Assembly: GCA_041650515.1 (NCBI GenBank)
Contig: JBAZLA010000002.1
Coordinates: forward strand, 103,659-167,658
Direction of reading: 5' to 3'
Source: Patescibacteria group bacterium
GTDB taxonomy: Bacteria; Patescibacteriota; Patescibacteriia; JACRDY01
DNA length: 64,000 bases
How positions within the stretch are numbered: the first letter of the stretch is position 1; each line of letters begins with the position of its first letter. This document shows, one piece after another, positions 1,322 through 18,395 of this stretch. The position numbers were made by a program, and so were the translations under genes. Under the pieces are notes generated by a model, which was given only the letters and a program-made list of their open reading frames with translations, searched no databases and was not told where the DNA came from.

Positions 1322-3808
1322 ATGTCCAACCACTTAACCAGTAAATTTACCGACCGTTTTAAAATGGCTCTAATTGAAGCTCATAACTTAGCTTTGAGCT
1401 TGCAACATGTCAAAATTAATCCCGAGCATTTACTCCACTCTTTGGTCAATCAAAACGGCGCTCTTAGTGCTGAGATATTAAAAAAATTCCAACTCAAAAC
1501 TAGCCAAATTGAAACGATGATTATTGCCAAAAATAAACGAGATGATAACCATAATCTAGTACCGACTATTTCTCCTGAAACTAAAAAAATTATTCAAAAG
1601 TCAGCGCTACTCGCTAGCCGGCTTAGGCATAAATATATCGGCACCGAGCATCTTCTTTTTGCCTTACTCCAAAGCGAAGATAAAACTGTCAAAAATATTC
1701 TGACTCAAAATAACGTCAATCTCGAAAGCCTAAAACATCAGGTAGAAGTTATTCTAAAAAGTACTTCCAAATTTCTGGATATCACAGCCGGCTTTAATCA
1801 ATCGGCTAACGAAGCTGAAGACGAATTAGAAAAACTACTGATGGGTAGCCTCCCTAAAACCGTGGCTAGCTTGGACCTTTTTACTACCGATCTGACCGAT
1901 CTATCAATCCAACAAAAAATCGACCCGGTAATCGGCCGCGAAGATGAAATCGAGCGCCTGATCCAGATCCTCGGCCGGCGCACCAAAAATAATCCCGTAC
2001 TCTTGGGCGACCCAGGCGTTGGCAAAACCGCCATTGTTGAAGGCCTGGCCAAAAAAATCGTCCGTGGCCAAGTACCGGATATGTTAATCAATAAAAAAAT
2101 ATTAACCCTCGATCTGGGTCTGGTTTTAGCTGGCACAATGTATCGCGGCGAATTTGAACAACGACTAAAACAAATCATTGACGAAATTAAAAAAGATCCC
2201 GACATTATTATCTTTATTGATGAAATCCATACCCTCACTGGCGCTGGGGCCAGTGCTGGCTCGCTCGATGCCGCTAATATTCTAAAACCCGCCCTGAGCC
2301 GCGGCGATATTCGCTGCATTGGTGCCACGACTCTCGAAGAATACCGCAAACATATTGAGTCGGATCCAGCCCTAGAACGTCGTTTCCAACCAATTATTAT
2401 CGAAGAACCAAATAAAATAAAAACAGAAGAAATCCTGCGGGGAATCAAAGAAAACTACGAGAAATACCATCAAGTTATAATCACTGACGAAGCAATCACC
2501 GCGGCCGTCCGTCTATCGGCGCGCTATATTCAAAATCGCTTCTTGCCAGATAAAGCGATTGACCTAATCGACGAAGCGGCTGCCAAATTAAAAATTAAAA
2601 AGGCCAACACCGGTAATATCAAAAAAATCAAAAAAATTGAACAAGGTTTAGAACTCCTACATAAAAAAAAGAAAGATCTGATCTTAGCTGAAAATTTCTC
2701 CGAAGCTTTAGAAATAAAAGAAGAAGAAAACCGAGTCTACCAAGAATTGCAGCAGCTCCAGGCCGAGCTTCAAAAACAAAAGAAAAAAACTCTGGGTAAA
2801 ATCACCGACCAAGATATTGCCGTTGTTGTCTCTAAGATGACCGGCATTCCCCTAACCGAACTAATCACGACCGAAAAAGACAAAATTTTGAATTTAGAAA
2901 AATTACTAAAAGATAAAATTATTAGCCAAGATGAGGCGATCAGAGAATTAAGTGAATCAATCCAGCGCTCCAGGACTGGCGTTGCTAACCAACGTCGGCC
3001 GATCGGCTCTTTTATCTTTTTGGGACCATCGGGCGTTGGCAAAACTGAATTAGCTAAAGTGCTGGCACAGATTCTCTTCGAGGATCGCAACGCTTTAGTC
3101 AAAATTGACATGTCCGAATTTAAAGAAAGTTTTAATGTTTCCAAGCTGATCGGTTCGCCACCCGGCTATGTCGGCTATAAAGAGAGCGGCCAGCTGACCG
3201 AAGCAGTGCGCCGTCGACCTTACTCAGTGATTTTGTTTGATGAAATCGAAAAAGCTCATCCAGAAATATTTAACATCTTGCTCCAGGTGATGGAAGACGG
3301 TGAATTAACCGACGCCACCGGCAAAAAAATAAATTTTAGAAACACCATCATTATTATGACCTCAAATGTTGGACTAAAAGATTTTGTCCAACAACGCAAA
3401 ATCGGCTTTGATGCTATTGCCCAAAATGATGATCTTTATGAAGAAATGAAGGGCTACTTGGAAAAAAGCCTTGAGGACCAATTTCGTCCGGAATTTTTGA
3501 ATCGCGTTGACAAAATTATTGTTTTTAAACCGCTTGATCATAATAGTCTACAAAAAATCGTTAAACTCCAATTAGCTGAGCTTAATAATCGCCTCAGTGA
3601 GCAAAATCTCAAGGTTCAAGCTGATCAAAAAGTTGTTAGTTTACTGGCGAGCCGTAATTTTAGTCCCGCCCAAGGCGCTCGGGCCGTCCGCAAAAATCTA
3701 CAAGAGCTAGTTGAAGGCCCGATCTCGACTGCCCTACTTAAGAACAAATTCAAAAAAAATGCTATAATAAAACTAAGAACCCAAGCTAACAAAATTATCT
3801 TAAATTAG
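1322..3808 (+). CDS. clpC: ATP-dependent Clp protease ATP-binding subunit, ClpC-type class I AAA+ chaperone
   Basis: Two N-terminal Clp_N repeats; AAA1 Walker [16 protein letters not shown]; short middle domain (about 100 aa, ClpC-like rather than ClpB); AAA2 [15 protein letters not shown], sensor/arginine finger region, 828 aa. Confidence 0.9.
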
Positions 3809-3830: not shown

Positions 3831-5057
3831 ATGGGCGAGGCCGCTCTAAAACTCGATCCCGAAGAAGATAAAGATGCTCTAGCTAAACAATACCAACGCG
3901 ATCTCAATAAAGAGCGTGGCGGTAAAGTTTTGAATATCCAAGTCAAAATAACTAAACGCTCGACCGACCAAAATACTCATAATACAGAAGGATATCAAGA
4001 AGAAGAAGAAAATGCTGATTCAATGCCTGATAATGTCACTGATTTAGCAGACTGGCGAGGCCGAAAACAACAACCAGCCAACGCGCCTCAACAACCAGCT
4101 GAATCATCCGATAATCAGTCCCCCCAGTCGGAAAAGCCAAACCCAGAATCACCCCAGGATCAACCTTCTCCAGGCGATCAATCTTCCCCGGAAAAGCCAA
4201 ACCCAGAATCAAAACCAGAACCCTCAGAAGAGCCGGAGCAAGAATCTCCTCAAAATCAACCGCCTCCAGGCAGTCAACCTGCTCCAGAAGAGCCAAACTC
4301 AAAACCAGAATCAGACAAAGAGAACAAAGAAGAGAAGCAAAAACCACCAGCAGAAGAAAGTGAACAAGTGACTAGTGCCGAGGAAGAAAAAGAAAAAGCT
4401 AGACAAGTAAGTACTGACCAAAAAAAATCTAGATCAAAGATCAAAGAAAAAGCCAGCCAAATAGCTCAAGAAGCTGGTAAGGTACTAAGGGCTATAACCG
4501 GTGAAGCCCTGCGCCAATCTTGGTTAAATCTTATTGACTCAATCGGTTTGACGCTACTCTATATTTGGTTTCACCATTTTATGTATTATTGTGGTGGCCC
4601 GTTCAAATGGGTGTTCATGCAGCCAGGCCAAGAATGGTTCGCTCAGCTTAAACAAGAATTGGGCTTAGGCGCCGCTGGCGCTGGCGCTGGCGCCACCACC
4701 GCTGGCAGCCAACCCAAAGTGGAAACAGCCACCAAAACCACCACGGAAACTAGCGGTAAAAGCAACGGCCAAAGTGGCGACCAGGGGGCTGAAGGTGGTG
4801 ATGAGAACGAAGATGCTGGTGACGGCGAAGAAGGCTCGGGTGAAAGTGGCGTTAGTGACGTAGCGGCCAAAGCTTTAGAATACACCGAAGTCGGCGCGGC
4901 CTGTTGTGTGGCCGTAATTATCGCGGGGCTATTGGCAATAATTGTTGTTTTTATTTATTACCTAGCTAACCCAGCAGCGGCCATATTAGATGCTATTAAT
5001 TTTAGTTTTTCAATAATCTCTGGTGGCGGTACTGCTGGCGCCAGTGGCAGTTACTAA
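3831..5057 (+). CDS. Pro/Glu/Ser/Gln-rich low-complexity protein with C-terminal hydrophobic segments
   Basis: Long ORF; repeated EKPNPES-like units, acidic disordered region, C-terminal TM-like stretches (AACCVAVIIAGLLAIIVVFIYY); start uncertain. Confidence 0.5.
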   Translation: MGEAALKLDPEEDKDALAKQYQRDLNKERGGKVLNIQVKITKRSTDQNTHNTEGYQEEEENADSMPDNVTDLADWRGRKQQPANAPQQPAESSDNQSPQSEKPNPESPQDQPSPGDQSSPEKPNPESKPEPSEEPEQESPQNQPPPGSQPAPEEPNSKPESDKENKEEKQKPPAEESEQVTSAEEEKEKARQVSTDQKKSRSKIKEKASQIAQEAGKVLRAITGEALRQSWLNLIDSIGLTLLYIWFHHFMYYCGGPFKWVFMQPGQEWFAQLKQELGLGAAGAGAGATTAGSQPKVETATKTTTETSGKSNGQSGDQGAEGGDENEDAGDGEEGSGESGVSDVAAKALEYTEVGAACCVAVIIAGLLAIIVVFIYYLANPAAAILDAINFSFSIISGGGTAGASGSY

Positions 5058-5085: not shown

Positions 5086-6324
5086 ATGAGTGAAAAAATT
5101 AAAAAAATCATCTACGCCGCCCTCTTTATACTACTAACCCTACTTTTGGGCTATTTCCTCTATCTTTTCTTTTTTAAAACTTCCGCCCCTACTCAAACGC
5201 CAACCAACTTAAATGCCTTAAATTATGCTGGCGGCCTGCCTCAGGCTGGGACTAATACTAATCAACCAACCTACATTAATACCAACGGCCAACTAGTGCC
5301 GGCCACTAATGTCAACGCTTCGGCGGCTGGCGTCTCATCGGTTGCCCGTGGCGGTTTGACCCAGGTTACCAGCCTAACTACTACTGCTGCCCAGGGTTTC
5401 ACTTTGGCTAAAGATGGATCAGGCGCGATATACTACAACCGAACCGAAGGTAAATTTTATAAAATCGGCGCCGATGGCCAAACGACTTTATTGACCGACA
5501 AAATCTTTCATGATGTCGAAGATATCTATTGGTCGCCAGACACGGAAAAAGCCGTCTTAGAATATCCCGATGGCTCTAATATTGTCTACGATTTTAAAAG
5601 TAAAAAACAGTACACCTTACCGAAGCACTGGGAAGACTTTAGTTTTTCACCCAAAAGCGACCAGTTGGTTTTTAAAAGCATGGCTCTAGACGAAGAAAAC
5701 CGTTGGCTAGCTATTTCCAAGCCAGATGGCTCGGGTGTCCAAGCATTAGAAACCCTGGGCGACAACGCCGACAAAGTCTATATTGACTGGTCGCCCAATA
5801 AACAGATCATTGCCACCAACACCGAATCCATTGATTTTGATCGCCAGTATCTTTATTTTGTTGGTACCCAGCATGAAAATTTCCGTAGTACAATTATCGA
5901 AGGCTGGGACTACCGCAGCGAGTGGTCCACTAACGGCGACCGACTACTCTATAGTGTCTGGAACCAAGATAGCGACCTTAAGCCCAATATTTGGATTGTG
6001 AACGGCTACGGCGAAAATATCGGCACCAACCGAACTAATCTAAACTTACAAACCTGGGCCGATAAATGCACCTTTTCGGATAACAGCACCGTCTACTGCG
6101 CCGTTCCCCAATATCTACCTCGTGGCGCTGGTATCGAACCAGACATTGCTGCCAGCACGCCGGATGACTTTTATAAAATTGACCTCAAAACCAACACCAA
6201 AAGCCTGATTGCCGTACCCGATGGCACCTATACTGCCAAAGATTTGTCGGTTAGTAGCGATGGCAAATATCTCTACTTTATTGACGGCGTGACTGGCCGG
6301 TTAAATAAAATAGGATTAAAATAA
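5086..6324 (+). CDS. N-terminally membrane-anchored PD40/TolB-type WD40-like beta-propeller protein
   Basis: N-terminal TM helix then repeated PD40-like blades (IYWSPDTEKAVLEYPDGS, FSFSPKSDQLVF, IDWSPNKQIIA, SVSSDGKYLYFID); first gene of a co-directional operon with the four paralogs. Confidence 0.6.
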   Translation: MSEKIKKIIYAALFILLTLLLGYFLYLFFFKTSAPTQTPTNLNALNYAGGLPQAGTNTNQPTYINTNGQLVPATNVNASAAGVSSVARGGLTQVTSLTTTAAQGFTLAKDGSGAIYYNRTEGKFYKIGADGQTTLLTDKIFHDVEDIYWSPDTEKAVLEYPDGSNIVYDFKSKKQYTLPKHWEDFSFSPKSDQLVFKSMALDEENRWLAISKPDGSGVQALETLGDNADKVYIDWSPNKQIIATNTESIDFDRQYLYFVGTQHENFRSTIIEGWDYRSEWSTNGDRLLYSVWNQDSDLKPNIWIVNGYGENIGTNRTNLNLQTWADKCTFSDNSTVYCAVPQYLPRGAGIEPDIAASTPDDFYKIDLKTNTKSLIAVPDGTYTAKDLSVSSDGKYLYFIDGVTGRLNKIGLK

Positions 6325-6330
6325 AAACCT

Positions 6331-7449
6331 ATGAAAAATTTGCCGCCACCGCGCGTCAAAATAATCTATTTAGTTCTGGGCGCGATAATCTTTGGCATAA
6401 CATTATTAGCCGCTCCAGCGCTCGCCGAATGGACCGAAGCTTCTTGTGTCCAATCCGGCGGCTGGTGGTATTCGGATAATTGCTGGGCTAATAACCCGAT
6501 GATTAATCTGGAGATACCTTTTGGCGGACTGCCCGCCAGCGGCCGTATTGGCATTGCTCAATATATCGGCGCGATTTATAAATTTGGCGTCACAACAGCC
6601 AGCGTCTTGGCAATTGTCATGATTATTATCGGCGGATTTATTTGGCTAACTTCAGCTGGCAGTCAGACCCGAATTACCCAGGCTAAAGGCTATATCGGTG
6701 GCGCTCTGATTGGTCTAGTGCTCGCGCTTGGCAGTTACACTATTTTAAGATTAGTTAATCCAGCTTTAACTGAATTTCGTCCGCTGCGAGTTTTATATTT
6801 AGAAGAAGAAAAGGTTGATTCCGGCGCTAACTTTTGTCCAGCCTCAACCGAAGATATGCCCTTATTTGATCTCAATAAAAAGAAACAAAAAGTTGGTGAT
6901 AAAGGCGAATGCGGGCAAGATTATAAAGTTGGCGATGCCGAAGCAACCGGCACCTGTCCGGGCTCTCACTGCAGCGGTGGCGGCATCTGCCTAATGGACG
7001 CCTCTAAAGATCCCAAAACCCTGCCTGACGGCCGTAAACAAGCAGTCATGGCTTGCCAATACCCAGAAGATGCTTGCAATAAAGTAGTTGATGAGAAAGT
7101 TGGTAATTTAAGCTTACCAACAAGTCAAGGTGCTTGTGATCAAATTAATAACCAAATAGCTTGGAGTGTTAGTAACCCTACCGGTACCTGCCATTGGGTC
7201 GATGAACCATATTCTGATGATGCTTGTTACTGGTGTCCTGAGGATAAAGAAAAGGTCGTAGCAGACGATTTAAAATCAGGAAAAACAAAATGTGAAGATT
7301 TGAGTGTTGGTCGATTCACTGGGACAAAAGAAGAAGATGCTTGCAATATAACAGTTTGTTCAAAGAGTTGCAGTGTTTATGTTGGCAGACCATTTTGGGA
7401 AGGAGTGACCGGCACTCTAGCGAGTGAAGCCCGCTCACTATGTAAATAG
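6331..7449 (+). CDS. Secreted Cys-rich protein with conserved two-helix hydrophobic hairpin (VirB2/TrbC-like topology), paralog 1; Cys-rich C-terminal domain of unknown function
   Basis: Signal peptide/TM (IIYLVLGAIIFGITLLAAPALA), Cys/Trp-rich N-domain, conserved block IAQYIGAIYKFGVTTASVLAIVMIIIGGFIWLTSAGSQTRITQAKGYIGGALIGLVLALGSYTILRLVNPALTEFRPL shared with the next three genes. Confidence 0.7.
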   Translation: MKNLPPPRVKIIYLVLGAIIFGITLLAAPALAEWTEASCVQSGGWWYSDNCWANNPMINLEIPFGGLPASGRIGIAQYIGAIYKFGVTTASVLAIVMIIIGGFIWLTSAGSQTRITQAKGYIGGALIGLVLALGSYTILRLVNPALTEFRPLRVLYLEEEKVDSGANFCPASTEDMPLFDLNKKKQKVGDKGECGQDYKVGDAEATGTCPGSHCSGGGICLMDASKDPKTLPDGRKQAVMACQYPEDACNKVVDEKVGNLSLPTSQGACDQINNQIAWSVSNPTGTCHWVDEPYSDDACYWCPEDKEKVVADDLKSGKTKCEDLSVGRFTGTKEEDACNITVCSKSCSVYVGRPFWEGVTGTLASEARSLCK

Positions 7450-7451
7450 AT

Positions 7452-8447
7452 ATGCTATCTAGAAATAAAAAGAAAAAATACACCGCTATTATCCTTGTTA
7501 TTTTTATTGGCTTATTTCTAGCCGCTAACCTTGTTTTAGCAACAGACGAAACTCCGCCCAAATGGACTAAGGACGGCTGTGACCAGGCTGGCGGCTGGTG
7601 GTTTGAAAGTAACTGTTGGGCTAATAACCCCACCATCAACCTGGCTGTACCTTTTGGTGGTCTAAAACCAAATACAACTATTGGCATCGCCCAATATATT
7701 GGTGCAATCTACCGTTTTGGCATCAGCGCGGCCAGTGTCTTGGCGATTGTGATGATTATTATCGGCGGGTTTATCTGGCTAACTTCAGCTGGTAATCCCA
7801 CGCGCGTCACCCAAGCTAAAGGCTACATCGGCGGCGCTCTAGTAGGTCTGGTACTAGCCCTCAGCAGTTATTCCATTCTCAGAACTATTAACCCAGCCCT
7901 AACTGAATTTAGGCCATTACACATTCTCTATGTCGGCGAAGCACCATTGGCGATTGCCACCTGCTGTGAAAAAGACGGCCAAATGAATATTATTTATGAG
8001 GCAAACCAAGAATGCCCCGAGGGTCAAAAAAAAGTCACTTGCCCGTGCAAAGAATTAGCCGCTAACGAATGCCAAGCTGGCATGGTAAAATCAACTAATT
8101 CTGATAAAATTAAAACTGGCTGTTACTCCACTGGCACTTGGATGAATATCGGCGGTGTTTATACTGCTGGCGGACTCCGAACTTGCGCCGAGATAGAATA
8201 CGGTGAAGATTGTTCCAACTTTGGCGGATTATTTGGCGGCCAGGCCTGCCGTAACTACGGCAAAACTTTTACTCACAAAGGTGGCACGGGCATCGTGCCG
8301 GACTATCCTGATCTCTTTAAAAATATCTGCACTTCTGATCCTTGCCAGATCGGCCCCTGTAAGTTTGTACAAACATCCAAAGATAAGGATGGCGTTCTTC
8401 AAAAACTAAACTGGTGTATTGGCGCCAATGAACAACCGCCAGAATAG
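7452..8447 (+). CDS. Paralog 2 of the hairpin family; Cys-rich C-terminal domain
   Basis: Start 3 nt after paralog 1 stop; near-identical N-domain motif GGWWFESNCWANNPTINL and conserved hairpin block IAQYIGAIYRFGISAASVLAIVMIIIGGFIWLTSAGNPTRVTQAKGYIGGALVGL...NPALTEFRPL; divergent Cys-rich C-terminus. Confidence 0.7.
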   Translation: MLSRNKKKKYTAIILVIFIGLFLAANLVLATDETPPKWTKDGCDQAGGWWFESNCWANNPTINLAVPFGGLKPNTTIGIAQYIGAIYRFGISAASVLAIVMIIIGGFIWLTSAGNPTRVTQAKGYIGGALVGLVLALSSYSILRTINPALTEFRPLHILYVGEAPLAIATCCEKDGQMNIIYEANQECPEGQKKVTCPCKELAANECQAGMVKSTNSDKIKTGCYSTGTWMNIGGVYTAGGLRTCAEIEYGEDCSNFGGLFGGQACRNYGKTFTHKGGTGIVPDYPDLFKNICTSDPCQIGPCKFVQTSKDKDGVLQKLNWCIGANEQPPE

Positions 8448-8476
8448 TCACCGGTAGCTACCAACTTAAAATAAAT

Positions 8477-9688
8477 ATGTTTATCAAAAAACAAAAAATA
8501 AAACTAAGCCTAGTCACTTTTATCGCTCTGGCTAGTATTTTTGTTTATTTAGCGCCAGCTCTAGCTCAAAGCGGCGAGAACTGTTGTGTTTGTACTGATT
8601 TTGGTGGTAAAGACGTAAAATACGCTCCGGGCGTACCTGATGCTAACGGTAAATGCGACCAACATATCACCTACTCTACTGAGTGCTACGGTGAGGGCTG
8701 CGCCACTACCCCGGATAAAGTTTGCTCAGTCAAAGGTGGCAGCTGCAAAAGCTGGCAAGCGGCCATTGATAAAGTCTCGGGTGAAGAAGCAGCCAAAAAA
8801 GAACTATTACCAGCGACTCCCCCAGTTTTGCAAGTTAATATCCCCGGCCTCACTTTTACCGGCGAAATCAAAGCCACCATGGAAGAAATGGGTCGACGTT
8901 ATTATAATATTCCCTGGCTAGCTGAATATATCGGCGCGGTTTACCGTTTTGGTGTTAGCGTGGCTAGCGTCCTAGCAATCGTTATGATAATTATTGGTGG
9001 CTTTATCTGGATGACCTCGGCTGGTAACCAGGCCCGGATCACCCAAGCTAAGGGTTATATTAGCGGCGCGCTGATTGGCCTCTGTATTGCTTTGGGTAGC
9101 TACGGCGTTTTAAAAGTGGTTAACCCGGCCTTGGTCAATCTCCGGCCACTTAAGATACTGATGATTGAGTTTGAAGACCTAACTGGCGTCTCCACCAATG
9201 ATGATACGGCAGCTGCTAACCTTAGCTTTTCTCCTTCTACGCCGACCGGCGATACTCAACTCCTAAAGTTAAATAATTATAAGGGTCGACCAATTATATT
9301 AGATAAATCAATCGCCAACACAGTTCAACAGATTTTACAACAATTGATTGATGGCGGTTTTCAGGTAAAAGATGCCTCTAGCCATCGCCCCAATCAAGCT
9401 GGTTTTTCTTGGCATAAGTCCGGACTAGCTATTGATATTAATCCAGCTGAAAATCCATGCCCATGTTGCTATACTGGCACAGACTATAAACAATGCTCCT
9501 CTGATAAGTGGAAACCGGGAGTGGGTGGTGCCGTGACTAAAGAAGTAGTGGATGCCTTTAAAGCGCAAGGTTTCTGCTGGGGGGGAGATTGGTGTCATTT
9601 TAAGGATTACATGCATTTTTCGAAACCATCAAATAGCGCCAGCAAAGAGTGCGGAAACGGCGGAAATGGTTGTCCTTATCAGTGGTAA
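8477..9688 (+). CDS. Paralog 3 of the hairpin family with C-terminal peptidase M15 (VanY/phage L-Ala-D-Glu peptidase-like) peptidoglycan hydrolase domain
   Basis: Signal peptide, CCVC Cys-rich N-domain, conserved hairpin block (EYIGAVYRFGVSVASVLAIVMIIIGGFIWMTSAGNQARITQAKGYISGAL), then SSHRPNQAGFSWHKSGLAIDIN ... GFCWGGDWCHFKDYMHF matching Zn-binding S-x-H...D and WGGxW...DxxHF motifs of M15 peptidases. Confidence 0.75.
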   Translation: MFIKKQKIKLSLVTFIALASIFVYLAPALAQSGENCCVCTDFGGKDVKYAPGVPDANGKCDQHITYSTECYGEGCATTPDKVCSVKGGSCKSWQAAIDKVSGEEAAKKELLPATPPVLQVNIPGLTFTGEIKATMEEMGRRYYNIPWLAEYIGAVYRFGVSVASVLAIVMIIIGGFIWMTSAGNQARITQAKGYISGALIGLCIALGSYGVLKVVNPALVNLRPLKILMIEFEDLTGVSTNDDTAAANLSFSPSTPTGDTQLLKLNNYKGRPIILDKSIANTVQQILQQLIDGGFQVKDASSHRPNQAGFSWHKSGLAIDINPAENPCPCCYTGTDYKQCSSDKWKPGVGGAVTKEVVDAFKAQGFCWGGDWCHFKDYMHFSKPSNSASKECGNGGNGCPYQW

Positions 9689-9698
9689 AAATATATCT

Positions 9699-10994
9699 AT
9701 GTTGAATAAATATTTAAAAATTGCGTTACTAACTATACTCTTTTGTTTAGCTCTAAGTCTCCAACCGGTTTTCGCCGGCGAGAGTTGCTGTGTTTGCAAC
9801 CCACTTAAAAATAAAGACAACCAAACTGCTAGTGGCGCGCCAACCGAGGGTAAATGCGACCAATATATTATTTATAGCACTCCAACTTGCCATGGCCAAT
9901 ATTGTCCACCTCAAGGACAACCAACTAATGAATGCCGAATTTTGGAATCTAGCTGCGCTAATGTTAGTAAAGCCATTTTAGAAAAAATCAACGGCCAAAA
10001 TAGCAAACAACCACTGCCTATTGAGGCACCCAATCTCCAAATCGCTATCCCCGGGCTAACTCTTACCCAACCAATCAGTGCTAAGGAAATGCCTAATACC
10101 GGTCGTTTATTCTATTCTATCCCCTGGATTGGCGAGTATATTGGGGCGATTTACCGCTTTGGGGTTAGCGCCGCCAGTATTTTAGCTATAGTGATGATTA
10201 TTATTGGCGGCTTTATCTGGCTCACTTCAGCCGGCAACCCGACCAAGATCACCCAAGCTAAGAGCTATATCAGCGGCGCCTTGCTCGGCTTAATGCTCGC
10301 TTTGGGTAGCTACACTATTCTAAGATTAGTTAATCCCTCGCTAGTCAATCTCAGCTCAATCAAAATTTTGATGATCGAATATGAACAAATGGAACAAGGT
10401 GGCCACGAATCGGATTATTTTCAAGTTAACTCTGGCGCCAAAGGTGCAGTTAGCGCCTATGATAGTGCTCCTTGTCCAACTAATGCTGAGGCGACTAACG
10501 GCTTTCAAGCCTTTATCACTGCTTACTATTCTCCGCCGCCCGGCGAAAAAGGTTTTTATAATAGTTTTGAATGTAACGTGGCGATGCAGTGCTCCTGCAC
10601 CCGCGATTCCAGTAAAACTTGCAGTCATAAATACGGCCCAGGTTGTCTGTTTAAAAAACCAGTAGAACAATTGATCCCTAATATCGACTACTGTACCAAA
10701 ACTGCCAGCGGTTCACCACCAACCTCCTGGGTCACTGTCGCCGCTGATGTTAAAAAGGGCACTGGCAAAGGCTGGGCGGATCATAAAGAATGTTGGAGTT
10801 TTGGCGACACTTTTGAAATTTATGACAGCGGCGGTAATAAAGTCGGCAATACGTGGGTGATTGGCGACCAAGGCTCAGCCATCAAAAGCCGCCACTTTGA
10901 TCTTTATGTCGGTACAGATTTATCCAAGGCTAGGAGCCTGGGTGGCGTTTATACAATCAAATTTACCAAGTGTACCAAATGTCCACTGCGTTAA
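9699..10994 (+). CDS. Paralog 4 of the hairpin family with C-terminal 3D-domain (MltA/YuiC-like) cell-wall hydrolase domain
   Basis: ORF track start 9552 overlaps paralog 3. ATG 9699 gives canonical signal peptide MLNKYLKIALLTILFCLALSLQPVFAGE; CCVC Cys-rich N-domain; conserved hairpin block; C-terminus AFITAYYSPP...CTKTASGSPPTSWVTVAADVKKG...WVIGDQGSAIKSRHFDLYVGTD matches TAY...ITASG...AVDP...DTGGAIKG.RIDLF pattern of 3D domains. Confidence 0.75.
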   Translation: MLNKYLKIALLTILFCLALSLQPVFAGESCCVCNPLKNKDNQTASGAPTEGKCDQYIIYSTPTCHGQYCPPQGQPTNECRILESSCANVSKAILEKINGQNSKQPLPIEAPNLQIAIPGLTLTQPISAKEMPNTGRLFYSIPWIGEYIGAIYRFGVSAASILAIVMIIIGGFIWLTSAGNPTKITQAKSYISGALLGLMLALGSYTILRLVNPSLVNLSSIKILMIEYEQMEQGGHESDYFQVNSGAKGAVSAYDSAPCPTNAEATNGFQAFITAYYSPPPGEKGFYNSFECNVAMQCSCTRDSSKTCSHKYGPGCLFKKPVEQLIPNIDYCTKTASGSPPTSWVTVAADVKKGTGKGWADHKECWSFGDTFEIYDSGGNKVGNTWVIGDQGSAIKSRHFDLYVGTDLSKARSLGGVYTIKFTKCTKCPLR

Positions 10995-11588
10995 ATGACT
11001 AACAAAATTCTCCAAACTTCTTTTTATAACCGACCAACACGTCAAGTTGCCCAGGATCTCCTGGGTAAAATTATTATCCGTCAAATCGGCCGCAAAAAAT
11101 ATTACGGCCTTATTACCGAAACTGAAGCTTATTGCGGGCCTCAGGACCAGGCCTCCCACGCTAGCAAAGGCCGCACCCCACGCACCGAGGTAATGTTTGG
11201 CCCAGCCGGCCACACCTATATCTATCTGATTTACGGTCTGTATCATTGTTTCAATATTGTCACCGAAAAAAAAGACTACCCAGCCGCGGTCCTGATCCGT
11301 GGCGCCCTCCCCTTACCAAAGGAATGGTTGGGTGGGGTTACTCTGCCCCTTTCCAAGAGGGAGATGGCCGAAGGCCAGAGGGGGTTAGCTAGTGGCCCAG
11401 GCAAACTCTGCCGTTATTTTAAAATTGATAAAACACTAAATAACCTCGATATTACTAAACCCAATAAACTTTGGCTGGTCGACAGCGGGCTAAAACCCCA
11501 AAGAATCATTCGCCGGCCTCGGGTCGGCGTTGATTACGCTGGTAAATACAAAGACAAAAAATGGCGGTTTATTACCCGATTTTCTTGA
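10995..11588 (+). CDS. mpg: DNA-3-methyladenine glycosylase (Mpg/AAG family)
   Basis: ATG overlaps TAA of upstream gene (taaATG); motifs GLITETEAYCGP, MFGPAGHTYIYLIYG, AVLIRGA, GPGKLC typical of Mpg family. Confidence 0.85.
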   Translation: MTNKILQTSFYNRPTRQVAQDLLGKIIIRQIGRKKYYGLITETEAYCGPQDQASHASKGRTPRTEVMFGPAGHTYIYLIYGLYHCFNIVTEKKDYPAAVLIRGALPLPKEWLGGVTLPLSKREMAEGQRGLASGPGKLCRYFKIDKTLNNLDITKPNKLWLVDSGLKPQRIIRRPRVGVDYAGKYKDKKWRFITRFS

Positions 11589-12168
11589 TACTATTTCTAT
11601 CTTCATCCCAATTTAAAGGATTATTGATAATATATTCGCTGATTTTTTGGTATTCTATTTGATTACGAATAATGTGTTCGTAATAATTTCGTTGCCATAA
11701 TCGTTGATCAAACGGCGACCAATTATTTTGTTTAACGTTTTTAATATATTCGTTGGTGGACATGGTTTTGAACCATTGCACCACCCGGGGTATTAATTGT
11801 TGGGAACGACGTAGGGGCAGACCCGGCGGTATTGGCAGACCTCTGTGTCTGCCCTGTTGGTTCGGGCAGACACAGAGGTCTGCCCCTACGTCGTCGATAA
11901 TTTCCACAATTCCATGAATATGATTTGGCATAACCACAAACACACCCAATCGAATGGTCAAAAATTTGTTCGGTAGTTTAGACCACCATTTTTGTGCCAT
12001 CCGACCCGCCGGATTTAAAATCATTCCCCCGTTTTCCACCCGACCGAATAAATAAACCATATTTTGGCTACAGATGGTAATGAAATATTGCCCCATTCCC
12101 GAATAATCATAATCGGGCAAGCGGATAGAACGACGGTGATGGTAATCGGGGTTATACATAGATAACAA
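11572..12168 (-). mobile_element. REP-associated tyrosine transposase (RAYT / IS200-like Y1 HuH transposase) gene with intragenic REP-like insertion
   Basis: HuH motif MPNHIHGIVEI and catalytic Tyr motif EYIINNP; about 30 extra residues (VGADLCVCPNQQGRHRGLPIPPGLPLRRS) between the two motifs are encoded by a GC-rich compound palindrome. Confidence 0.75.
11806..11894. repeat. GC-rich REP-like compound palindrome (BIME-like) inside the RAYT ORF
   Basis: Outer 18-bp perfect inverted arms acgacgtaggggcagacc / ggtctgcccctacgtcgt; inner units ggcagacctctgtgtctgccc and gggcagacacagaggtctgcccc are reverse complements of each other; GTAG/CTAC tetranucleotides flank the hairpins as in REP sequences. 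Confidence 0.8.
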
Positions 12169-12221
12169 AAGATAAGGCCTATCCTGACTCTATCATGGTG
12201 GACATTAAAGAAATCTAAAAT

Positions 12222-12245
12222 AAAAAAAGGGACGACGATCGTCCC
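12222..12245 (-). terminator. Rho-independent terminator candidate downstream of GC-rich island gene
   Basis: On minus strand GGGACGA-TCG-TCGTCCC (7-bp GC stem) followed by TTTTTTTATTTTAG; additional GC hairpins at 12275-12288 and 12300-12315. Confidence 0.5.
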
Positions 12246-12315
12246 CGACTAAGCTCGGACTAACCCACAAGGGTGGCTGGTCCCAGCCCAGTTAATTGTG
12301 CTGCTTGTAGGCAGC

Positions 12316-12681
12316 TTATTTTTTGGCTTTGGGCTTCTGGCGCGACTTGGGCCGACACCGGCTATTCAGCCAGTCGTCGAACGATCCGACGCTGGCAAAA
12401 TCCGCCTCGTTCGGCTTCTTGCCGTTGACGGCCATCAGATGACGCGCGGCCACCTGCATCACCCCGGTGCCTGACGGATGCCGGAAACGGGCTACCACAC
12501 CCGCTCCCTGCGAGTCGTGACCAAGGCCAATAATCTCCAGACGCTGCCCCAGGGCCGGCGCCAGATGGGCGATAGAGCCAATCGTGGCTCCGCCGCCAGC
12601 GCACGGGCTATTCCGGTTGATCTTGGCCACCACACCAGGATCAACCGATTCGAAAGTCACAGTAATGAATTCTCGACGCAT
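12316..12681 (-). CDS. Small basic protein of unknown function, GC-rich island gene B (paralog of 13047..13448)
   Basis: ORF track gives 12316..12765 but AGGAGG lies 8 nt upstream of ATG at 12681 (MRREFITVTF...); C-terminal basic tail KSRQKPKAKK; region is about 60% GC versus about 40% elsewhere. Confidence 0.55.
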   Translation of the reverse strand: MRREFITVTFESVDPGVVAKINRNSPCAGGGATIGSIAHLAPALGQRLEIIGLGHDSQGAGVVARFRHPSGTGVMQVAARHLMAVNGKKPNEADFASVGSFDDWLNSRCRPKSRQKPKAKK

Positions 12682-13046
12682 AGGGGCCCCTCCTACCAAA
12701 GATTGAGGCAATTGTTTAAAAAGAACCCACACCCCAGCCCGCCTCATTAGGCTAAGGTGATTCACTGATTATTTATTTAATTACCATATTTTCAGTCTTC
12801 AGTCAATAACAATATTCTAAATAAAACAAAATGGGGCAGACGCGTAGTCTTACCCCGGCGCAAGATCGTGGGCAGGCGGGCCTTTGAATCAGCGCAAATT
12901 TCCTCTTTTGGGTTTCCTTCCCCCCTTGTGTGACCGCGCCGCATTGCGGTCGAAGAATTCAACCCCCTTGAGGAAGACGATATCGCTTGGTCAGAAGAGA
13001 ACACAAGGTAGCTCATCTGGCGAAGCGACAAATGCAAAAGGACGTC

Positions 13047-13448
13047 TTACGACCGGCGACGAACTTTGCCGCTGCCGCCGGACTGCTTCTTCTTGCCGCT
13101 GCCGCCGTTGCAGTGGAGCAGAAGAAATTCGCCGAGAAACGTCTCGGCATCCGTCAGATGCTGCTCGGTCGGTTTGATCTTATCGGCGCTCATGACATGC
13201 TGCGCCATGACCTGCAGATCACCCGGATTGAGCCGGCCTTGCAGAGCCTCAGGCAGGGCGAATCGGATGATCGGTCTTCGCAACTTGGGGTGATCAGCGA
13301 TTTCCACCACCGTAAGCTCATGACCGATCAACTGACCGAGTCGTTCGTGGTGACGAGCCTTACTCGGTCGGCCATTCAACACGCATTCACTGTCGCCATT
13401 GAGACAAACAGTGAGCCCCTTCGGAACCTCAACAAACTGAAACTCCAT
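13047..13448 (-). CDS. Small basic protein of unknown function, GC-rich island gene A
   Basis: GAGGT 7 nt upstream of ATG; C-terminal Gly/Lys/Arg tail; segment LQVMAQHVMSADKIKPTEQHLTDAETF aligns with VMQVAARHLMAVNGKKPNEADFASVGSF of gene B; preferred over overlapping plus-strand ORF 12987..13451, which lacks an RBS. Confidence 0.55.
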   Translation of the reverse strand: MEFQFVEVPKGLTVCLNGDSECVLNGRPSKARHHERLGQLIGHELTVVEIADHPKLRRPIIRFALPEALQGRLNPGDLQVMAQHVMSADKIKPTEQHLTDAETFLGEFLLLHCNGGSGKKKQSGGSGKVRRRS

Positions 13449-13569
13449 TAGCGTTACCTCTTCTTTCAGGGCATAGGAGAATGAGCTTTTAGTTGGTCTT
13501 CCGCCTTAGACCTCTGTATAGCCCTAAACGCCAAGGATTCGCCCCGTTGATCCTGACGTAATTATTCGC

Positions 13570-13599
13570 ATTATAAACAAAAAGAATAGTTCTTGTCAA
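13570..13599 (-). promoter_or_regulatory. Perfect consensus sigma70 promoter TTGACA-N18-TATAAT reading into the GC-rich island genes
   Basis: Minus strand: TTGACA (13599..13594), 18-nt spacer, TATAAT (13575..13570), about 115 nt upstream of gene A start. Confidence 0.6.
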
Positions 13600-13613
13600 C
13601 TATCTTCTTAATT

Positions 13614-13715
13614 GTCATTGCGAGGCCCGACGTAAAGTCGGGCCGAAGCAATCTCATGATATATCCACCAGATTGCTTCGTCGCTCCGCCGGCTGGCGGA
13701 GCTCCTCGCAATGAC
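13614..13715. repeat. 102-bp nested compound palindrome (closing stem plus three internal hairpins, all perfect Watson-Crick)
   Basis: Outer gtcattgcgag/ctcgcaatgac (11 bp); hairpin 1 gcccgac-gtaaa-gtcgggc; hairpin 2 cgaagcaatc-17 nt-gattgcttcg; hairpin 3 gctccgcc-ggct-ggcggagc; linkers 0-2 nt. Confidence 0.8.
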
Positions 13716-13757
13716 GTGGTCAATAAATTTGCTTTATTGTTTTCTTGCTTTATTGAC

Positions 13758-15857
13758 CTATTCCCAATGCACTCGCTCGGCCATTTCCCTTACCTTATCT
13801 TTGAGTAAATAATATTTACTTAATTCTGGATCACTGTGGATAACTTTAGCTGCCCACTCACGCGCTTGCTTAATGGCTGCTAAATCAAACAAACTAGCTA
13901 GCCGTAAATTAGGCAAACCACTCTGCATGGTGCCTAGGGTCTCACCTGGCCCGCGAAATTCTAAATCTTTCTCGGCTAGTGCAAAACCATCCTGGCTAGC
14001 CACTAACGCCGCTAGACGCCTAGCGGTTATCTCACTAGCCGATTCGGTAAATAAAAAACAATAGGATTGGTGCTCTGATCGACCCACCCGACCGCGGAAT
14101 TGGTGCAACTGCGCTAAACCAAAACGCTCAGCCCCTTCGATCATCATCACCGTGGCATTAGGCACATCCATGCCCACTTCCACTACGGCCGTGGCGACCA
14201 AAACTTTAATTTTATTAACCAAAAAATCTTGTCGTACTCGCTCTTTCTCCGCCGATTTTAACCGACCATGCAAAATGCCAATCGCATGTTCTGGAAAAAT
14301 TTCTTTGTCTAGTTTAATAAATTCTTCTTCCGCCGACTTAACGCCTAATTTGTCTGACGGATCAATCAATGGACAGATCACAAAAGCCTGTCGACCAGCT
14401 TCAATCTGCTGCCTAATAAATTGATAAGCCGGCCGATACTTATTAGATTCAATAATTTTGGTGATAATTTTTTTACGACCCAGCGGCAATTCATCAATAA
14501 TTGATAAGTCTAAATCGCCATAGATAGTCAAAGCTAACGACCGCGGGATTGGGGTGGCGGTCATTGATAAAAAATGAGGCAATAAACCGCTATTACCCGC
14601 TCGTTCTTTAAGCGCCTGGCGCTGTTTAACACCAAAACGATGTTGTTCGTCAACGATCGCCAGAGCTAAGTTTTTAAATTCAATCTTTTCTTGGATCAAA
14701 GCGTGAGTGCCAATAATAACGTCAATTTTACCGGCTTTAAGCATCTTAATCACCTCTGAGTGCTTTTTATTTTCTGCTTCACCTAGCGAGCCAAAAAACA
14801 ACTTAACGCTACCCCGAGTTAATAAACCAATGTTAATATCCGCTCCGGACAAGAGTTTACTCACAGTTTGAAAATGCTGATTGGCTAGTATCTCGGTTGG
14901 GCAGAGCAAGGCGGCCTGATATTTGTTACTAACAACATTAAGCATCGCTAAAGTAGCCACCACGGTTTTACCCGAGCCAACATCACCTTCGAGCAGCCGA
15001 TTCATTGGCTGATTTTTTTGTAGATCCTTCAGAATCTCCCAAGCCGCTTTACGTTGAGCCGTCGTCAGTTTAAATGGTAAACTAGCGACAAAATTTTTAA
15101 TCACTCCCTCTTTAAATTCTAAGCTACTGGAGTGGCTTTTTTCTAGTTCGCGACGCGCGAGTTGGTTTTGCAGCTGAATAATAAAAAATTCGTCAAACTT
15201 AAGCCGACGCCGCGCCTGCTGCAGCCTGGCTTGGCTATCGGGAAAATGGATCTGCCTGATAGCCGCTATCAGGCCGGGAAATTTTAAAGCTAAAATAATC
15301 TCCGCCGGCAAATAATCCTTAATACTTTTTAATTGGGTCAAAACGATCTTAATCAGATAACGAATTTGTTTAGAAGTTATCCCCTTGGTCAAGGGATAAA
15401 CCGGTACCAGCCGAGCGGTATGCGTCGGCCCACTAGCGGCTTTAACCTTGGTAATCTTTTCATAGCTTGGCGAATGAAATAAAATTCCCTTATCAAAATC
15501 AACCTTACCAGCAATAAAAACCTCATCGTTCGGCTGTAAAATTTTACTCACAAAGGGTTGGCCGAACCAAATAACTTTTACTGAACCAGTAATATCAGTG
15601 ATAATCGCTTCGGTAACTATCCGTCGCGCTCGCCAAGAACGGAAATTTTTAATCAATTCTACTCTGCCACGAACGGTCGCCGTAACCCCCGGCGCCAAAT
15701 CCCGAATATCAACTACCTGACTAAAATCATCATAGCGAAACGGATAATAAAAAATGAGATCGGCTATCGTCTCAATTTCTAATTTTTTTAATTTTGGCGC
15801 TAATCTAGCGGCAATTTTATTAAGATAACTAACCGGCGTTTTTAAATTAATCAACAT
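13758..15857 (-). CDS. recG: ATP-dependent DNA helicase RecG
   Basis: 699 aa; N-terminal wedge/OB region, helicase motif I DVGSGKTVVA, DEQHRFGV (motif II), C-terminal helicase domain motifs; canonical RecG architecture. Confidence 0.9.
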   Translation of the reverse strand: MLINLKTPVSYLNKIAARLAPKLKKLEIETIADLIFYYPFRYDDFSQVVDIRDLAPGVTATVRGRVELIKNFRSWRARRIVTEAIITDITGSVKVIWFGQPFVSKILQPNDEVFIAGKVDFDKGILFHSPSYEKITKVKAASGPTHTARLVPVYPLTKGITSKQIRYLIKIVLTQLKSIKDYLPAEIILALKFPGLIAAIRQIHFPDSQARLQQARRRLKFDEFFIIQLQNQLARRELEKSHSSSLEFKEGVIKNFVASLPFKLTTAQRKAAWEILKDLQKNQPMNRLLEGDVGSGKTVVATLAMLNVVSNKYQAALLCPTEILANQHFQTVSKLLSGADINIGLLTRGSVKLFFGSLGEAENKKHSEVIKMLKAGKIDVIIGTHALIQEKIEFKNLALAIVDEQHRFGVKQRQALKERAGNSGLLPHFLSMTATPIPRSLALTIYGDLDLSIIDELPLGRKKIITKIIESNKYRPAYQFIRQQIEAGRQAFVICPLIDPSDKLGVKSAEEEFIKLDKEIFPEHAIGILHGRLKSAEKERVRQDFLVNKIKVLVATAVVEVGMDVPNATVMMIEGAERFGLAQLHQFRGRVGRSEHQSYCFLFTESASEITARRLAALVASQDGFALAEKDLEFRGPGETLGTMQSGLPNLRLASLFDLAAIKQAREWAAKVIHSDPELSKYYLLKDKVREMAERVHWE

Positions 15858-17759: not shown

Positions 17760-18395
17760 CTATAATCGCGGTGTCTGCCATTCTATCCAGGATACTAACC
17801 AACTATCCCCTTGCTTGGAAAATTTTAATAAAAGATCTTGGTAGGTTATTTCCGGACCGGCCGCGCTCTGCGCTGTCTTGATCCGCTGAGTCGAAACAAC
17901 GACGGTCGCACTGTTGTCTGTTAGCTCTTGGATCTTGGTAGCCAAACCTTGAGTAGTTATACCCATCACCACCGAATCTTTATTTTTGGCTTTTTCTTGG
18001 GTAATATACTTTTCGCTCCACGTTTTGACCTCAGTGGTCATAAACAGCTGTAGATCGCGAATATTTTCATAGTTATTAGTGGTTGAATAACTACCAAAAC
18101 GCGAAGCAAAGTCAGTTGCCAGCCGCTCTAGATTAATCTCTGATTGTTGTTGTTCATCCAATACTGGAGCAGTGTCTTTAGTAATCGCCGCCGGCTGATT
18201 ATCAGCATTAATCACTAACCGATTGCCTGATTTGACGGACAAACTACCATTCATGCTATTGCCAGCCTGGTTAGCCAACTGTTCCGAATTTGGTACTGCC
18301 TCACTCCTCAAAACCACATACAAAATAATTCCTAGAACGATCACCAGAACGGCGATGCCCGCCAAAATTATTTTACCTCGGTTAGATATTATCAT
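17760..18395 (-). CDS. N-terminally anchored extracytoplasmic protein adjacent to VirB4; possible VirB8-like component
   Basis: Single N-terminal TM helix, about 180-aa soluble domain; position directly downstream of VirB4 as for VirB8/PrgL-like proteins; no sequence motif confirmed. Confidence 0.4.
   Translation of the reverse strand: MIISNRGKIILAGIAVLVIVLGIILYVVLRSEAVPNSEQLANQAGNSMNGSLSVKSGNRLVINADNQPAAITKDTAPVLDEQQQSEINLERLATDFASRFGSYSTTNNYENIRDLQLFMTTEVKTWSEKYITQEKAKNKDSVVMGITTQGLATKIQELTDNSATVVVSTQRIKTAQSAAGPEITYQDLLLKFSKQGDSWLVSWIEWQTPRL

Follow-up and report, generated by a model that had tools for sequence, protein, structure and literature searches.

Tandem arrays of VirB2-like pilins are a described feature of the type IV secretion systems (T4SSs) of Patescibacteria. 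The proteins of these arrays, which belong to family PF18895, combine a signal peptide with a hydrophobic hairpin containing GGxxWxTSxGN and INPxL motifs, and their genes are linked to virB4, prgI, and virB6 (Wang et al., 2023, PMC10633639; Quinonero-Coronel et al., 2025, PMC12102498). They are ~100–185 amino acids (aa) in length, carry no extra domain, and share 25% mean identity, with a maximum of 54% (PMC12102498). The essential T4SS locus of Southlakia epibionticum contains six short PF18895 pilins along with VirB4, PrgI, an NTF2-like protein, and VirB6 (PMC10633639). Its lysozyme-like and M15-fold proteins, likewise essential, are encoded by separate genes beside virB4, one of which specifies a 643-aa protein that combines a pair of lysozyme-like domains with a Cys-proteinase domain (PMC10633639 Tables S1, S2), and the other a 1113-aa protein with a Hedgehog/DD-peptidase (M15) fold at its C-terminal end (PMC10633639). 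Most genomes with VirB2 homologs lack VirB1, and pilus biogenesis is apparently VirB1-independent (PMC12102498); one review considers the role of the T4SS in Patescibacteria to be “completely unknown” (PMC11665869). The subject of the present analysis is a 64,000-nucleotide stretch of a Patescibacteria group bacterium (assembly GCA_041650515.1, contig JBAZLA010000002.1, positions 103,659–167,658; hereafter, the window), in which four tandem genes, P1–P4, encode proteins that place a hairpin of the pilin type between a Cys-rich N-terminal domain (N-domain) and a C-terminal domain, or head, that differs from one protein to the next.

P1–P4 share with the described arrays the signal peptide and hairpin, both sequence motifs, the tandem arrangement, linkage to virB4, prgI, and virB6, and the host group. 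A cleavable signal followed by a two-helix hairpin, a feature of the pilin family, is present in P1–P4 by hydropathy, charge, and AlphaFold (AF2) modeling, whereas the small single-domain size is not, as these proteins are 331–431 aa in length and add an N-domain of 25–100 aa and a head of 167–212 aa. Their hairpins are also far more alike (74–84% identity) than the 25% mean of described arrays, and the array follows a propeller gene at a distance of 6.8 kb from the T4SS genes. On balance, P1–P4 are probably head-bearing VirB2-like pilins of an ABY1-type Patescibacterial T4SS, i.e., pilin-anchored ectoenzymes that would in effect be VirB2/VirB1 chimeras. The original prediction, made from the DNA alone, had raised such chimeras as one option, and of the readings considered it is the one best supported by genomic context (the L016 operon, L029, and mixed arrays, described below).

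The four co-directional genes are packed end to end on the plus strand:
6331–7449, plus strand: P1, 372 aa, a head-bearing pilin-domain protein identical to P0036 (NCBI name “pilin”), with a signal peptide (approximately aa 1–32), a one-disulfide N-domain (GGWW..NCWANNP), the pilin hairpin, and a 16-Cys head.
6553–6768, plus strand: hairpin block of P1, 72 aa.
7452–8447, plus strand: P2, 331 aa, a head-bearing pilin-domain protein identical to P0037 (NCBI name “pilin”), with an N-domain of the P1 type, the pilin hairpin, and an orphan 14-Cys head.
7686–7901, plus strand: hairpin block of P2, 72 aa.
8477–9688, plus strand: P3, 403 aa, identical to P0034 (NCBI name “M15 family metallopeptidase”), with an 8-Cys N-domain (CCVC..GKCDQ), the pilin hairpin, and a predicted M15 metallopeptidase head.
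8918–9133, plus strand: hairpin block of P3, 72 aa.
9395–9622, plus strand: predicted M15 catalytic domain of P3, aa 307–382, the PF13539 Peptidase_M15_4 match.
9699–10994, plus strand: P4, 431 aa, identical to P0035 (NCBI name “hypothetical protein”), with an N-domain of the P3 type, the pilin hairpin, and a 3D/YuiC-like head.
10128–10343, plus strand: hairpin block of P4, 72 aa.
10386–10991, plus strand: head of P4, a Cys-rich domain of the 3D (MltA/YuiC) type, with its Pfam core at aa 380–412 (10836–10934).

Stop-to-start gaps of 2, 29, and 10 nt separate the four genes, and the P4 stop codon directly abuts (gap of 0 nt) the ATG of mpg (methylpurine-DNA glycosylase) at 10995. The mechanical open reading frame (ORF) of P4 opens at 9552, and a start at the ATG at 9699 yields a normal signal peptide and the deposited 431-aa product. 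No small ORF, as an immunity gene would require, is present between the array genes. A promoter scan gave scores no better than shuffled sequence, and a terminator scan was uninformative on the limits of the operon. The array was thus outlined correctly at the start, as four consecutive, tightly spaced genes, each encoding a signal peptide, a Cys-rich N-domain, a shared block, and a C-terminal head, with mpg adjoining its end.

The shared block is highly conserved. Its four copies are 74–83% identical in pairwise comparisons over 72 aa and 75–84% identical over a 67-aa core, and 47 of the 101 columns in the P1–P4 alignment are invariant. Third codon positions of the block are just 38–53% identical between copies, with synonymous sites near saturation, so the conservation of the block reflects selection at the protein level and not recent duplication of the DNA. 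In a single-sequence Pfam scan all four proteins matched PF18895 (T4SS_pilin), with E-values of 4.4e-3 for P1 (17.5 bits), 1.6e-5 for P2 (25.4 bits), 1.2e-4 for P3 (22.5 bits), and 2e-4 for P4 (21.8 bits). A profile built from the four blocks retrieved PF18895 pilins of 116–174 aa from a 5.8-billion-protein collection, with E-values of 1.5e-21 to 1e-7. The window blocks align with these short pilins column by column through the GGxxWxTSAGN, AK, LxGL, and INPxL motifs, and the short pilins stop a few residues past INPxL, the very point at which the heads of P1–P4 start.

Relatives of the family were collected with an exhaustive hidden Markov model (HMM) search of 1.84 billion cluster representatives, which returned 34,102 proteins at E ≤ 1e-3, of which 7,416 also passed E ≤ 1e-10; all tallies of heads and hairpins given here cover the best 150 of the 34,102 representatives, or 146 when the window’s own proteins are left aside. 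PF18895 was matched by 125 of the 146 closest relatives, with E-values down to 1e-51. TrbC/VirB2 (PF04956), one of the families against which the block was first proposed to be compared, gave no Pfam match for P1–P4 at E ≤ 0.01, and the connection to it runs through relatives: P0026 and one close relative match both PF18895 and PF04956, as do the short pilins SEML1_0018 and SEML1_0019 of S. epibionticum (PMC10633639 Table S2). An NCBIfam scan returned a single weak match, of P4 to the Mbov_0395 pilin-like conjugal transfer family. The initial description of the hairpin as VirB2/TrbC-like is therefore upheld, its alternative description as holin-like is not, since P1–P4 matched no holin family in Pfam at E ≤ 0.01, and no well-characterized unrelated family was matched that might have displaced the pilin assignment.

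Comparisons with solved structures were less informative. The pilin profile A3 retrieved no solved pilin from PDB sequences, and a Foldseek search of the PDB with the P1 model gave nothing at E ≤ 0.001; the conjugation pilus of A. pernix (8dfu), found at rank 25 with a probability of 0.54, is not counted as evidence. AF2 models, run on full-length P1 and P4 with shallow alignments, contain the expected hairpin, with helices at residues 75–107 and 112–142 in P1 (pLDDT 77–90) and at residues 142–175 and 181–211 in P4 (pLDDT 85–93). In profile searches, the assignment of the block to the Patescibacterial VirB2-like pilin domain (PF18895) is unambiguous.

Hydropathy and charge analysis identified three hydrophobic segments per protein, a signal peptide, for which cleavage sites were read by eye from AxA motifs, and two transmembrane (TM) helices. 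The loop between the helices, TSAGxxxRITQAKGY, contains two Lys/Arg residues and no Asp or Glu. The proposed division of the N-domains into two subtypes proved real by pairwise identity, with P1 and P2 being 60% identical over 30 aa and P3 and P4 42% identical over 106 aa. The numbers of Cys residues in the N-domain and head are all even (2 + 16 in P1, 2 + 14 in P2, 8 + 8 in P3, and 8 + 10 in P4). Together, these features carry the signature of hairpins predicted to have both termini outside the membrane (N-out/C-out) and disulfide-bonded ectodomains.

As originally noted, the C-terminal domains are completely different, and the four heads fail to align with one another. The P3 head is the clearest of these, and its early description as an M15 peptidase stands. 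It matches PF13539 (Peptidase_M15_4) with an E-value of 4.3e-19 and a score of 69.3 bits against a cut-off of 25, and both metal-binding motifs are intact, SxHxxGxAxD as SWHKSGLAID and DxxH as DYMH. Among solved structures it comes nearest to two phage L-alanyl-D-glutamate endolysins, LysB4 (6akv, E 1.7e-6) and Ply500 (2vo9, E 2e-6), and by these matches the P3 head is a predicted M15 peptidase closest to the L-Ala-D-Glu endolysins.

The P4 head had been called a 3D/MltA-type domain, for which its own Pfam score is insufficient (PF06725, E 6.7e-4; 20.3 bits, below the cut-off of 23.8) but family-level evidence is favorable. Four relatives with a P4-type head match 3D, with E-values down to 4e-6, and a profile of five P4-type heads detected YuiC of B. 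subtilis (4wli/4wlk/4wjt) at E 0.004–0.005 and, at E 1.1, MltA. In all five heads the defining Asp residues of the 3D domain, three in number and located within AAD, xDxG, and HFD, are invariant. The P4 head is thus a putative lytic transglycosylase, probably of the YuiC/MltA type.

The remaining two heads, of P1 and P2, were described from the outset as unrecognized Cys-rich domains, and no Pfam or PDB relative has emerged for either. Heads of the P1 type recur, making up 11 of the 140 heads examined, and share 14 invariant Cys residues; a profile of this head type found nothing in the PDB, and neither did the full P1 sequence. The P2 head is an orphan, as none of the 150 closest family members carries a related head and P2 has no PDB match. 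The possibility that it is a divergent head of the P1 type was rejected (hhalign probability 0.1).

Fusions of this kind extend well beyond the window. Word-indexed searches had too little sensitivity for the heads, the first of them retrieving short pilins only, and the fusions surfaced in the exhaustive HMM search. A C-terminal extension of at least 100 aa is present in 133 of the 150 closest representatives, with a median of 182 aa and a Cys content of 4.7%. Among the 146 relatives, Pfam identified heads of the SLT (15), Peptidase_M15_4 (6), 3D (4), M23 (4), Peptidase_C39_2 (4), Amidase_2 (3), NlpC/P60 (3), and phage lysozyme (3) families, as well as VanY, glucosaminidase, SLT_3, and a metallophosphoesterase, although the majority of heads had no Pfam match. 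All-against-all BLASTP placed 140 heads in 69 sequence clusters. The modular variability inferred at first from four paralogs is therefore general, since homologs in other genomes carry many different heads and not one fixed domain.

Several relatives depart further from the plain pilin architecture. Between two and six hairpins per chain occur in 16 of the 150 relatives, some of which then continue into a head (e.g., P0033, with three hairpins in 609 aa; P0039 and P0040, with four; and P0059, with six in 555 aa), and such covalently joined pilin repeats suggest a side-by-side packing of hairpins. The arrays at L027 (7394–11142), L034 (6845–14023), and L038 (8804–14692), with 6, 12, and 9 pilin genes, respectively, mix short pilins with members bearing N- or C-terminal Cys-rich extensions and form a continuum from plain to head-bearing pilins. 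Two adjacent head-bearing pilin genes at L040, 7382–9565 and 9689–13948 (running past the contig end), encode hairpins that are 92% identical and very large heads, one of 727 aa and one of at least 1419 aa with 87 Cys residues. Patescibacteria-type pilin fusions are also found at loci titled “uncultured Gammaproteobacteria” (L001, L009) and “Candidatus Baltobacteraceae” (L017; P0188/P0189), labels that are probably binning or classification errors.

Genomic context was sampled from ~40 loci (L-numbers), for which the readable flanks extend at most 10 kb per side and often less. Within a locus, hairpin identity averages 74% (18 pairs), compared with 45% between loci (417 pairs). The within-locus values are 76% for the window, 78% for L019, 91% for L003, 95% for L017, 66% for L006, 68% for L007, and 61% for L016, and beyond these 18 pairs L022 and L040 gave 70% and 92%; arrays made up of head-bearing genes alone thus span 61–95%, and short or mixed pilin arrays are more divergent, with core identities of 40–46%. 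The comparison with L019 is particularly instructive because it contains orthologous heads. The hairpin of P1 is 57–58% identical to that of the L019 ortholog that shares its head and 79–84% identical to those of its paralogs in the same genome, and P3 and the L019 ortholog with an M15 head follow the same pattern, so that hairpins cluster by genome despite the orthology of the heads. Residues common to all window paralogs and specific to them include YIGA, IIIGGFIW[LM]TSAG[NS], and TQAK[GS]Y, while those common to the L019 paralogs are YMK[GT], IMIGGV[LI]WMTAGG[NS]QE, and G[KR][KT]Y. Recent gene conversion was considered as the cause of this conservation and rejected, because only a fraction of 0.33–0.54 of the identical residues in the window blocks use identical codons, and the corresponding fraction is 0.47 within genomes and 0.39 between them. 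The homogeneity of the hairpins is instead indicative of selection that keeps them mutually compatible, or of conversion events in the more distant past. Homogenized cores combined with freely varying heads are what would be expected if the hairpins must fit each other or one common partner, which is a hint of co-assembly.

The window also encodes T4SS components, and an apparatus of this type was originally placed about 7 kb away; its genes are encoded on the other strand, with the nearest of them 6.8 kb beyond the last array gene:
17760–18395, minus strand: VirB8-like candidate with a TM segment and a globular domain, downstream of the VirB4 gene; a homolog follows VirB4 in L016.
18414–20291, minus strand: VirB4-like T4SS ATPase (PF19044 TraG P-loop, E 1e-26).
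20295–20993, minus strand: TraC-like/TrsD-like protein, whose L016 homolog carries PF26593 (TraC-like).
20962–21399, minus strand: PrgI/VirB3 (PF12666 PrgI, E 2e-7).
25289–28285, minus strand: extended VirB6/TrbL-like membrane protein, 998 aa (PF04610, E 4e-4).

The window VirB4 is 67% identical to that of L016 and 52% identical to that of L020, and homologs of the TraC-like, PrgI, and VirB6-like genes are found in L016, L020, L029, and L037; the identity of the 17760–18395 product as VirB8 is that of a candidate. The T4SS genes are flanked by comF and recG, which matches the typical content of ABY1 T4SS loci, where comF, recG, and radA are found (PMC12102498). The distance from the array to virB4, 7.4 kb or about ten ORFs, falls within the ±20-CDS (coding sequence) range used to define proximity in the same study (PMC12102498). 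No further hairpin-bearing ORF of at least 40 aa was found across the 64-kb window, so P1–P4 are its sole VirB2-like genes, and no short pilin was detectable in L016 either.

Linkage is closest at L016, where a co-directional run encodes a giant protein, VirB6-like, x, PrgI, TraC-like, VirB4, the VirB8-like candidate, x, and a fusion, and then continues with a propeller, DsbA, a pilin-SLT fusion, and RadA, such that the fusions directly extend the T4SS operon. VirB4 of L016 is split into overlapping ORFs (6971–8419 and 8416–8688) by a frameshift or assembly error in an otherwise intact operon. At L029, a 384-aa head-bearing fusion is encoded 1.4 kb after VirB4. The short pilin P0012, by contrast, occupies a canonical PrgI, x, VirB4, x, pilin cluster beside dnaA. 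Many fusion loci show no T4SS gene in their flanks, and the linkage between fusions and the T4SS is thus real yet not universal. That wall-cleaving and pilin parts work together is suggested by their occurrence as separate genes in the T4SS locus of S. epibionticum and as fused domains in the window, and fused heads offer an explanation for the scarcity of VirB1 in VirB2-bearing genomes.

Other genes in and near the T4SS cluster include metK (S-adenosylmethionine synthetase; 22714–23895, minus strand), located between the PrgI-side genes and the VirB6-like gene. A giant minus-strand ORF (28316–36625, 2769 aa, with a weak CBM_4_9 match) adjoins the VirB6-like gene, a position matched by that of a 3062-aa gene beside the VirB6-like gene of L016. 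A second giant minus-strand ORF (41706–51269, 3187 aa) is a probable adhesin, with nine FG-GAP repeats along with Kre9/KNH, DUF4215, SdrD_B, and CarboxypepD_reg domains.

Upstream of the array, three further plus-strand genes complete a conserved neighborhood:
1322–3808, plus strand: ClpB/ClpC-type AAA+ chaperone, the upstream synteny anchor of the cluster.
3831–5057, plus strand: acidic Pro-rich low-complexity protein with C-terminal hydrophobic helices, for which position is kept and sequence is not.
5086–6324, plus strand: beta-propeller-like membrane-anchored protein, 412 aa, directly upstream of the fusions.

The window order of ClpB, acidic TM protein, TM-anchored propeller, and fusions, after which comes an oppositely oriented recG, is also found in Magasanikbacteria, Buchananbacteria, and further Patescibacteria. 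Propeller homologs that are 35–56% identical are found just upstream of fusions in L004, L009, L010, L011, L016, L019, L021, L022, and L035. The propeller had been labeled PD40, an assignment that holds faintly for homologs, some of which match PD40/Tricorn, but not for the window protein, which has no Pfam match at E ≤ 0.01. Acidic Pro/Glu/Gln-rich low-complexity ORFs also lie between ClpB and the propeller in L004 (5416–6741) and L009 (6891–7823), and these and the window protein have no detectable sequence similarity to one another.

Both the heads and the copy number of fusions differ between genomes at this syntenic slot (ClpB, propeller, [DsbA], fusions, recG). Its occupants are P1-type, P2 orphan, M15, and 3D heads in the window, P1-type, M15, and SLT-like heads in L019, a C39-like head in L009, and an SLT head in L016. 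The L019 orthologs of P1 and P3 are 32% identical over 367 aa (full length) and 36% identical over 305 aa, respectively. A second syntenic class, SecG, DsbA, fusions, UvrA, contains one, two, or three fusion genes. At 15 loci, the first fusion gene is directly preceded by a DsbA-family gene, in many cases with an overlap, which fits the disulfide-rich nature of the extracytoplasmic heads; L009 has the order ClpB, propeller, DsbA, fusion, radA, recG. No DsbA gene precedes the fusions in the window or L019, and none was detectable across the 64 kb of the window.

A different context is found at L014 (Kuenenbacteria), where a 538-aa pilin-domain fusion with 28 Cys residues (10001–11617) comes after the cell-division cluster mraZ, rsmH, PBP, ftsA and a pair of HEPN/nucleotidyltransferase genes, and the 10 kb around it contain no T4SS gene. 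Downstream of the array in the window, a GC-rich stretch (12200–13500; 0.51 vs. 0.41–0.46 in its flanks) contains unannotated minus-strand ORFs at 12316–12765 and 13047–13448 and adjoins an ORF weakly resembling IS200/Y1 transposases (11572–12168). It is possibly a small acquired insert; an Rfam scan of 11500–13800 found no credible match.

A mechanism can be proposed on these grounds. Each protein would be exported by the Sec pathway, its signal peptide would be removed, and the two-helix hairpin would reside in the membrane with its short basic loop in the cytoplasm and the N-domain and head outside, where disulfides formed by oxidative folding would stabilize the outer domains. The hairpin would be the constant module, responsible for anchoring, for association with copies of itself or with short pilins, and possibly for recruitment into a pilus. 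The heads would be interchangeable working ends, that of P3 an L-Ala-D-Glu-type M15 peptidase and that of P4 a YuiC/MltA-type lytic transglycosylase, while the disulfide-rich heads of P1 and P2 may be binding modules. In this way the heads would supply in fused form the VirB1-like wall opening that is encoded separately in other T4SSs, and would breach the cell’s own wall, the host wall, or both, at the T4SS or a contact site. In this model, catalysis by the heads and the wall on which they would act are inferred.

Incorporation of P1–P4 into a filament is a tentative extension of this model, which we consider rather doubtful. Both termini of the subunit face outward in F-type pili, and short C-terminal fusions are tolerated there; to our knowledge, polymerization into a pilus has been shown for no Patescibacterial pilin. 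In its most far-reaching form, a speculative proposal that we would bet against, Patescibacteria would build enzymatically active conjugative-type pili, VirB2-like heteropolymers with a shaft of matched hairpins and swappable outward heads, both peptidoglycan hydrolases from many catalytic families and disulfide-rich binding modules, with which the pilus would drill through the host wall.

Several observations weigh against assigning P1–P4 to the T4SS as head-bearing pilins. All four single-sequence PF18895 scores are under the Pfam gathering score of 26.6 bits. The array is separated from the nearest T4SS gene and from VirB4 by the distances given above, is on the opposite strand, and has mpg, the IS200-like gene, recG, tRNAs, and comF in between, and most related loci show no T4SS gene within their readable flanks (≤10 kb per side). 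No function can be assigned to the heads of P1 and P2, and the AlphaFold modeling suggested at the outset, confident for the hairpins of P1 and P4, gave pLDDT values of 30–67 for their heads, too poor for fold assignment. If every subunit bears a head of 17–22 kDa, steric clashes might prevent assembly of a helical filament of the VirB2 type, and the hairpin may simply be a membrane anchor. The cell-division context of L014 also favors a housekeeping role.

These points bear most directly on the possibility that P1–P4 are housekeeping autolysins, which would remodel the cell’s own wall during growth, division, or turnover and use a pilin-derived hairpin as a mere anchor to keep the enzymes on a monoderm cell, with no role in the T4SS. 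We judge this explanation unlikely, although it accounts for the location of the array in a conserved chromosomal neighborhood with ClpB, a TolB-like propeller, and DsbA, for the L014 fusion, for the placement of enzymes facing the producer’s own wall without immunity genes, and for the many loci without T4SS genes in the sampled flanks. The rapid turnover of heads at one syntenic slot, with copy number varying from 1 to 4, would be unusual for housekeeping enzymes, and the majority of heads are not recognizable hydrolases. Moreover, the fusions extend a T4SS operon in L016 and lie close to a T4SS in L029, some arrays include ordinary short pilins, and the concerted evolution of hairpins is unexpected for independent anchors.

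A resemblance to polymorphic effector systems was also noted originally, and the comparison holds for the constant module with variable heads and fails for cognate immunity genes. According to this explanation, the hairpin serves for trafficking, and the heads would be toxins that act against a host or competitor after delivery by the T4SS into or onto another cell, in the manner of X-Tfe proteins. It draws on the high variability of the heads, many of which are peptidoglycan hydrolases, on the T4SS nearby in the window, and on the proposal that the T4SS of epibiont Patescibacteria delivers effectors (PMC11665869). The gaps of 2–29 nt contain no immunity-like small ORFs, however, and a cleavable Sec signal, two TM helices, and DsbA linkage indicate a resident membrane or surface protein rather than a cytoplasmic substrate of a coupling protein. 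A Pfam scan of the larger ORFs of the T4SS cluster, several of which are matchless, named no VirD4-type coupling protein, and the homology of the constant module is with a structural pilin and not with any known secretion signal. Delivery of the heads as toxins is accordingly quite improbable. A phage origin, as lysis genes of a prophage remnant in which a holin-like hairpin is fused to endolysin domains, is effectively refuted: although the P3 head is most similar, among solved structures, to phage endolysins and class II holins include two-TM hairpins, no holin family was matched, no phage genes are nearby, the proteins begin with a cleavable signal and an extracytoplasmic N-domain, chromosomal synteny is kept across several candidate genera, and the hairpin is clearly homologous to PF18895 pilins.

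If P1–P4 are head-bearing pilins, as we favor, three other systems offer partial parallels. VirB1-type hydrolases (VirB1, PrgK of pCF10, TraG of pIP501, and SEML1_0006/0007) likewise provide extracytoplasmic peptidoglycan-cleaving domains encoded with a T4SS, but are soluble or held by a single N-terminal TM segment or lipid anchor and are not fused to a pilin, whereas the anchor of P1–P4 is the pilin hairpin; catalytic families also differ between the window paralogs, unlike in VirB1-type hydrolases. Xanthomonas X-Tfe/X-Tfi proteins resemble the window array in placing several peptidoglycan-hydrolase families on one constant module in association with a T4SS. The X-Tfes carry a C-terminal XVIPCD signal that is recognized by VirD4 and are encoded next to immunity genes, while the constant module of P1–P4 is a Sec-exported membrane hairpin and the window has no immunity genes. 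Flagellinolysins combine a conserved polymerization core with an outward variable region that has acquired an enzyme, and are a precedent for a filament subunit that doubles as an enzyme (Eckhard et al., 2017, PMC5595980). They differ in being flagellar, with a mid-chain protease and demonstrated assembly into active filaments, whereas the window proteins would be T4SS pilins, with filament assembly hypothetical.

The pilin arrays, PF18895, and the “pilin” labels of P1 and P2 are already known. No description of head-bearing or hydrolase-fused VirB2-like pilins was found in the literature searched, nor was any found there of DsbA or propeller partners, of head swapping at a syntenic slot, or of hairpin homogenization. 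The initial claim that a hairpin-hydrolase fusion is undescribed therefore holds for that literature, with the qualification that the family is large, unremarked in databases, and not confined to this genome.

Few systems have been shown to be indispensable to Patescibacteria living as epibionts; the T4SS is among them, and the fusion architecture may explain how it passes cell walls. The distribution of these proteins suggests that in many lineages wall-cleaving domains sit on pilin-like proteins, an alternative answer to the missing VirB1, and provides a testable model for the crossing of two cell walls by an ultrasmall monoderm bacterium, with defined heads, DsbA, and the propeller partner as targets. 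The contrast between a homogenized hairpin and freely replaced heads is also a clean natural case of module-level concerted evolution. If the heads are displayed on a filament, this would be the first enzyme-bearing T4SS pilus, and enzymatic pili would account for the essentiality of the T4SS and its pilins in epibiotic growth, for the general lack of a stand-alone VirB1, and for the homogenization of hairpins while their heads diversify.

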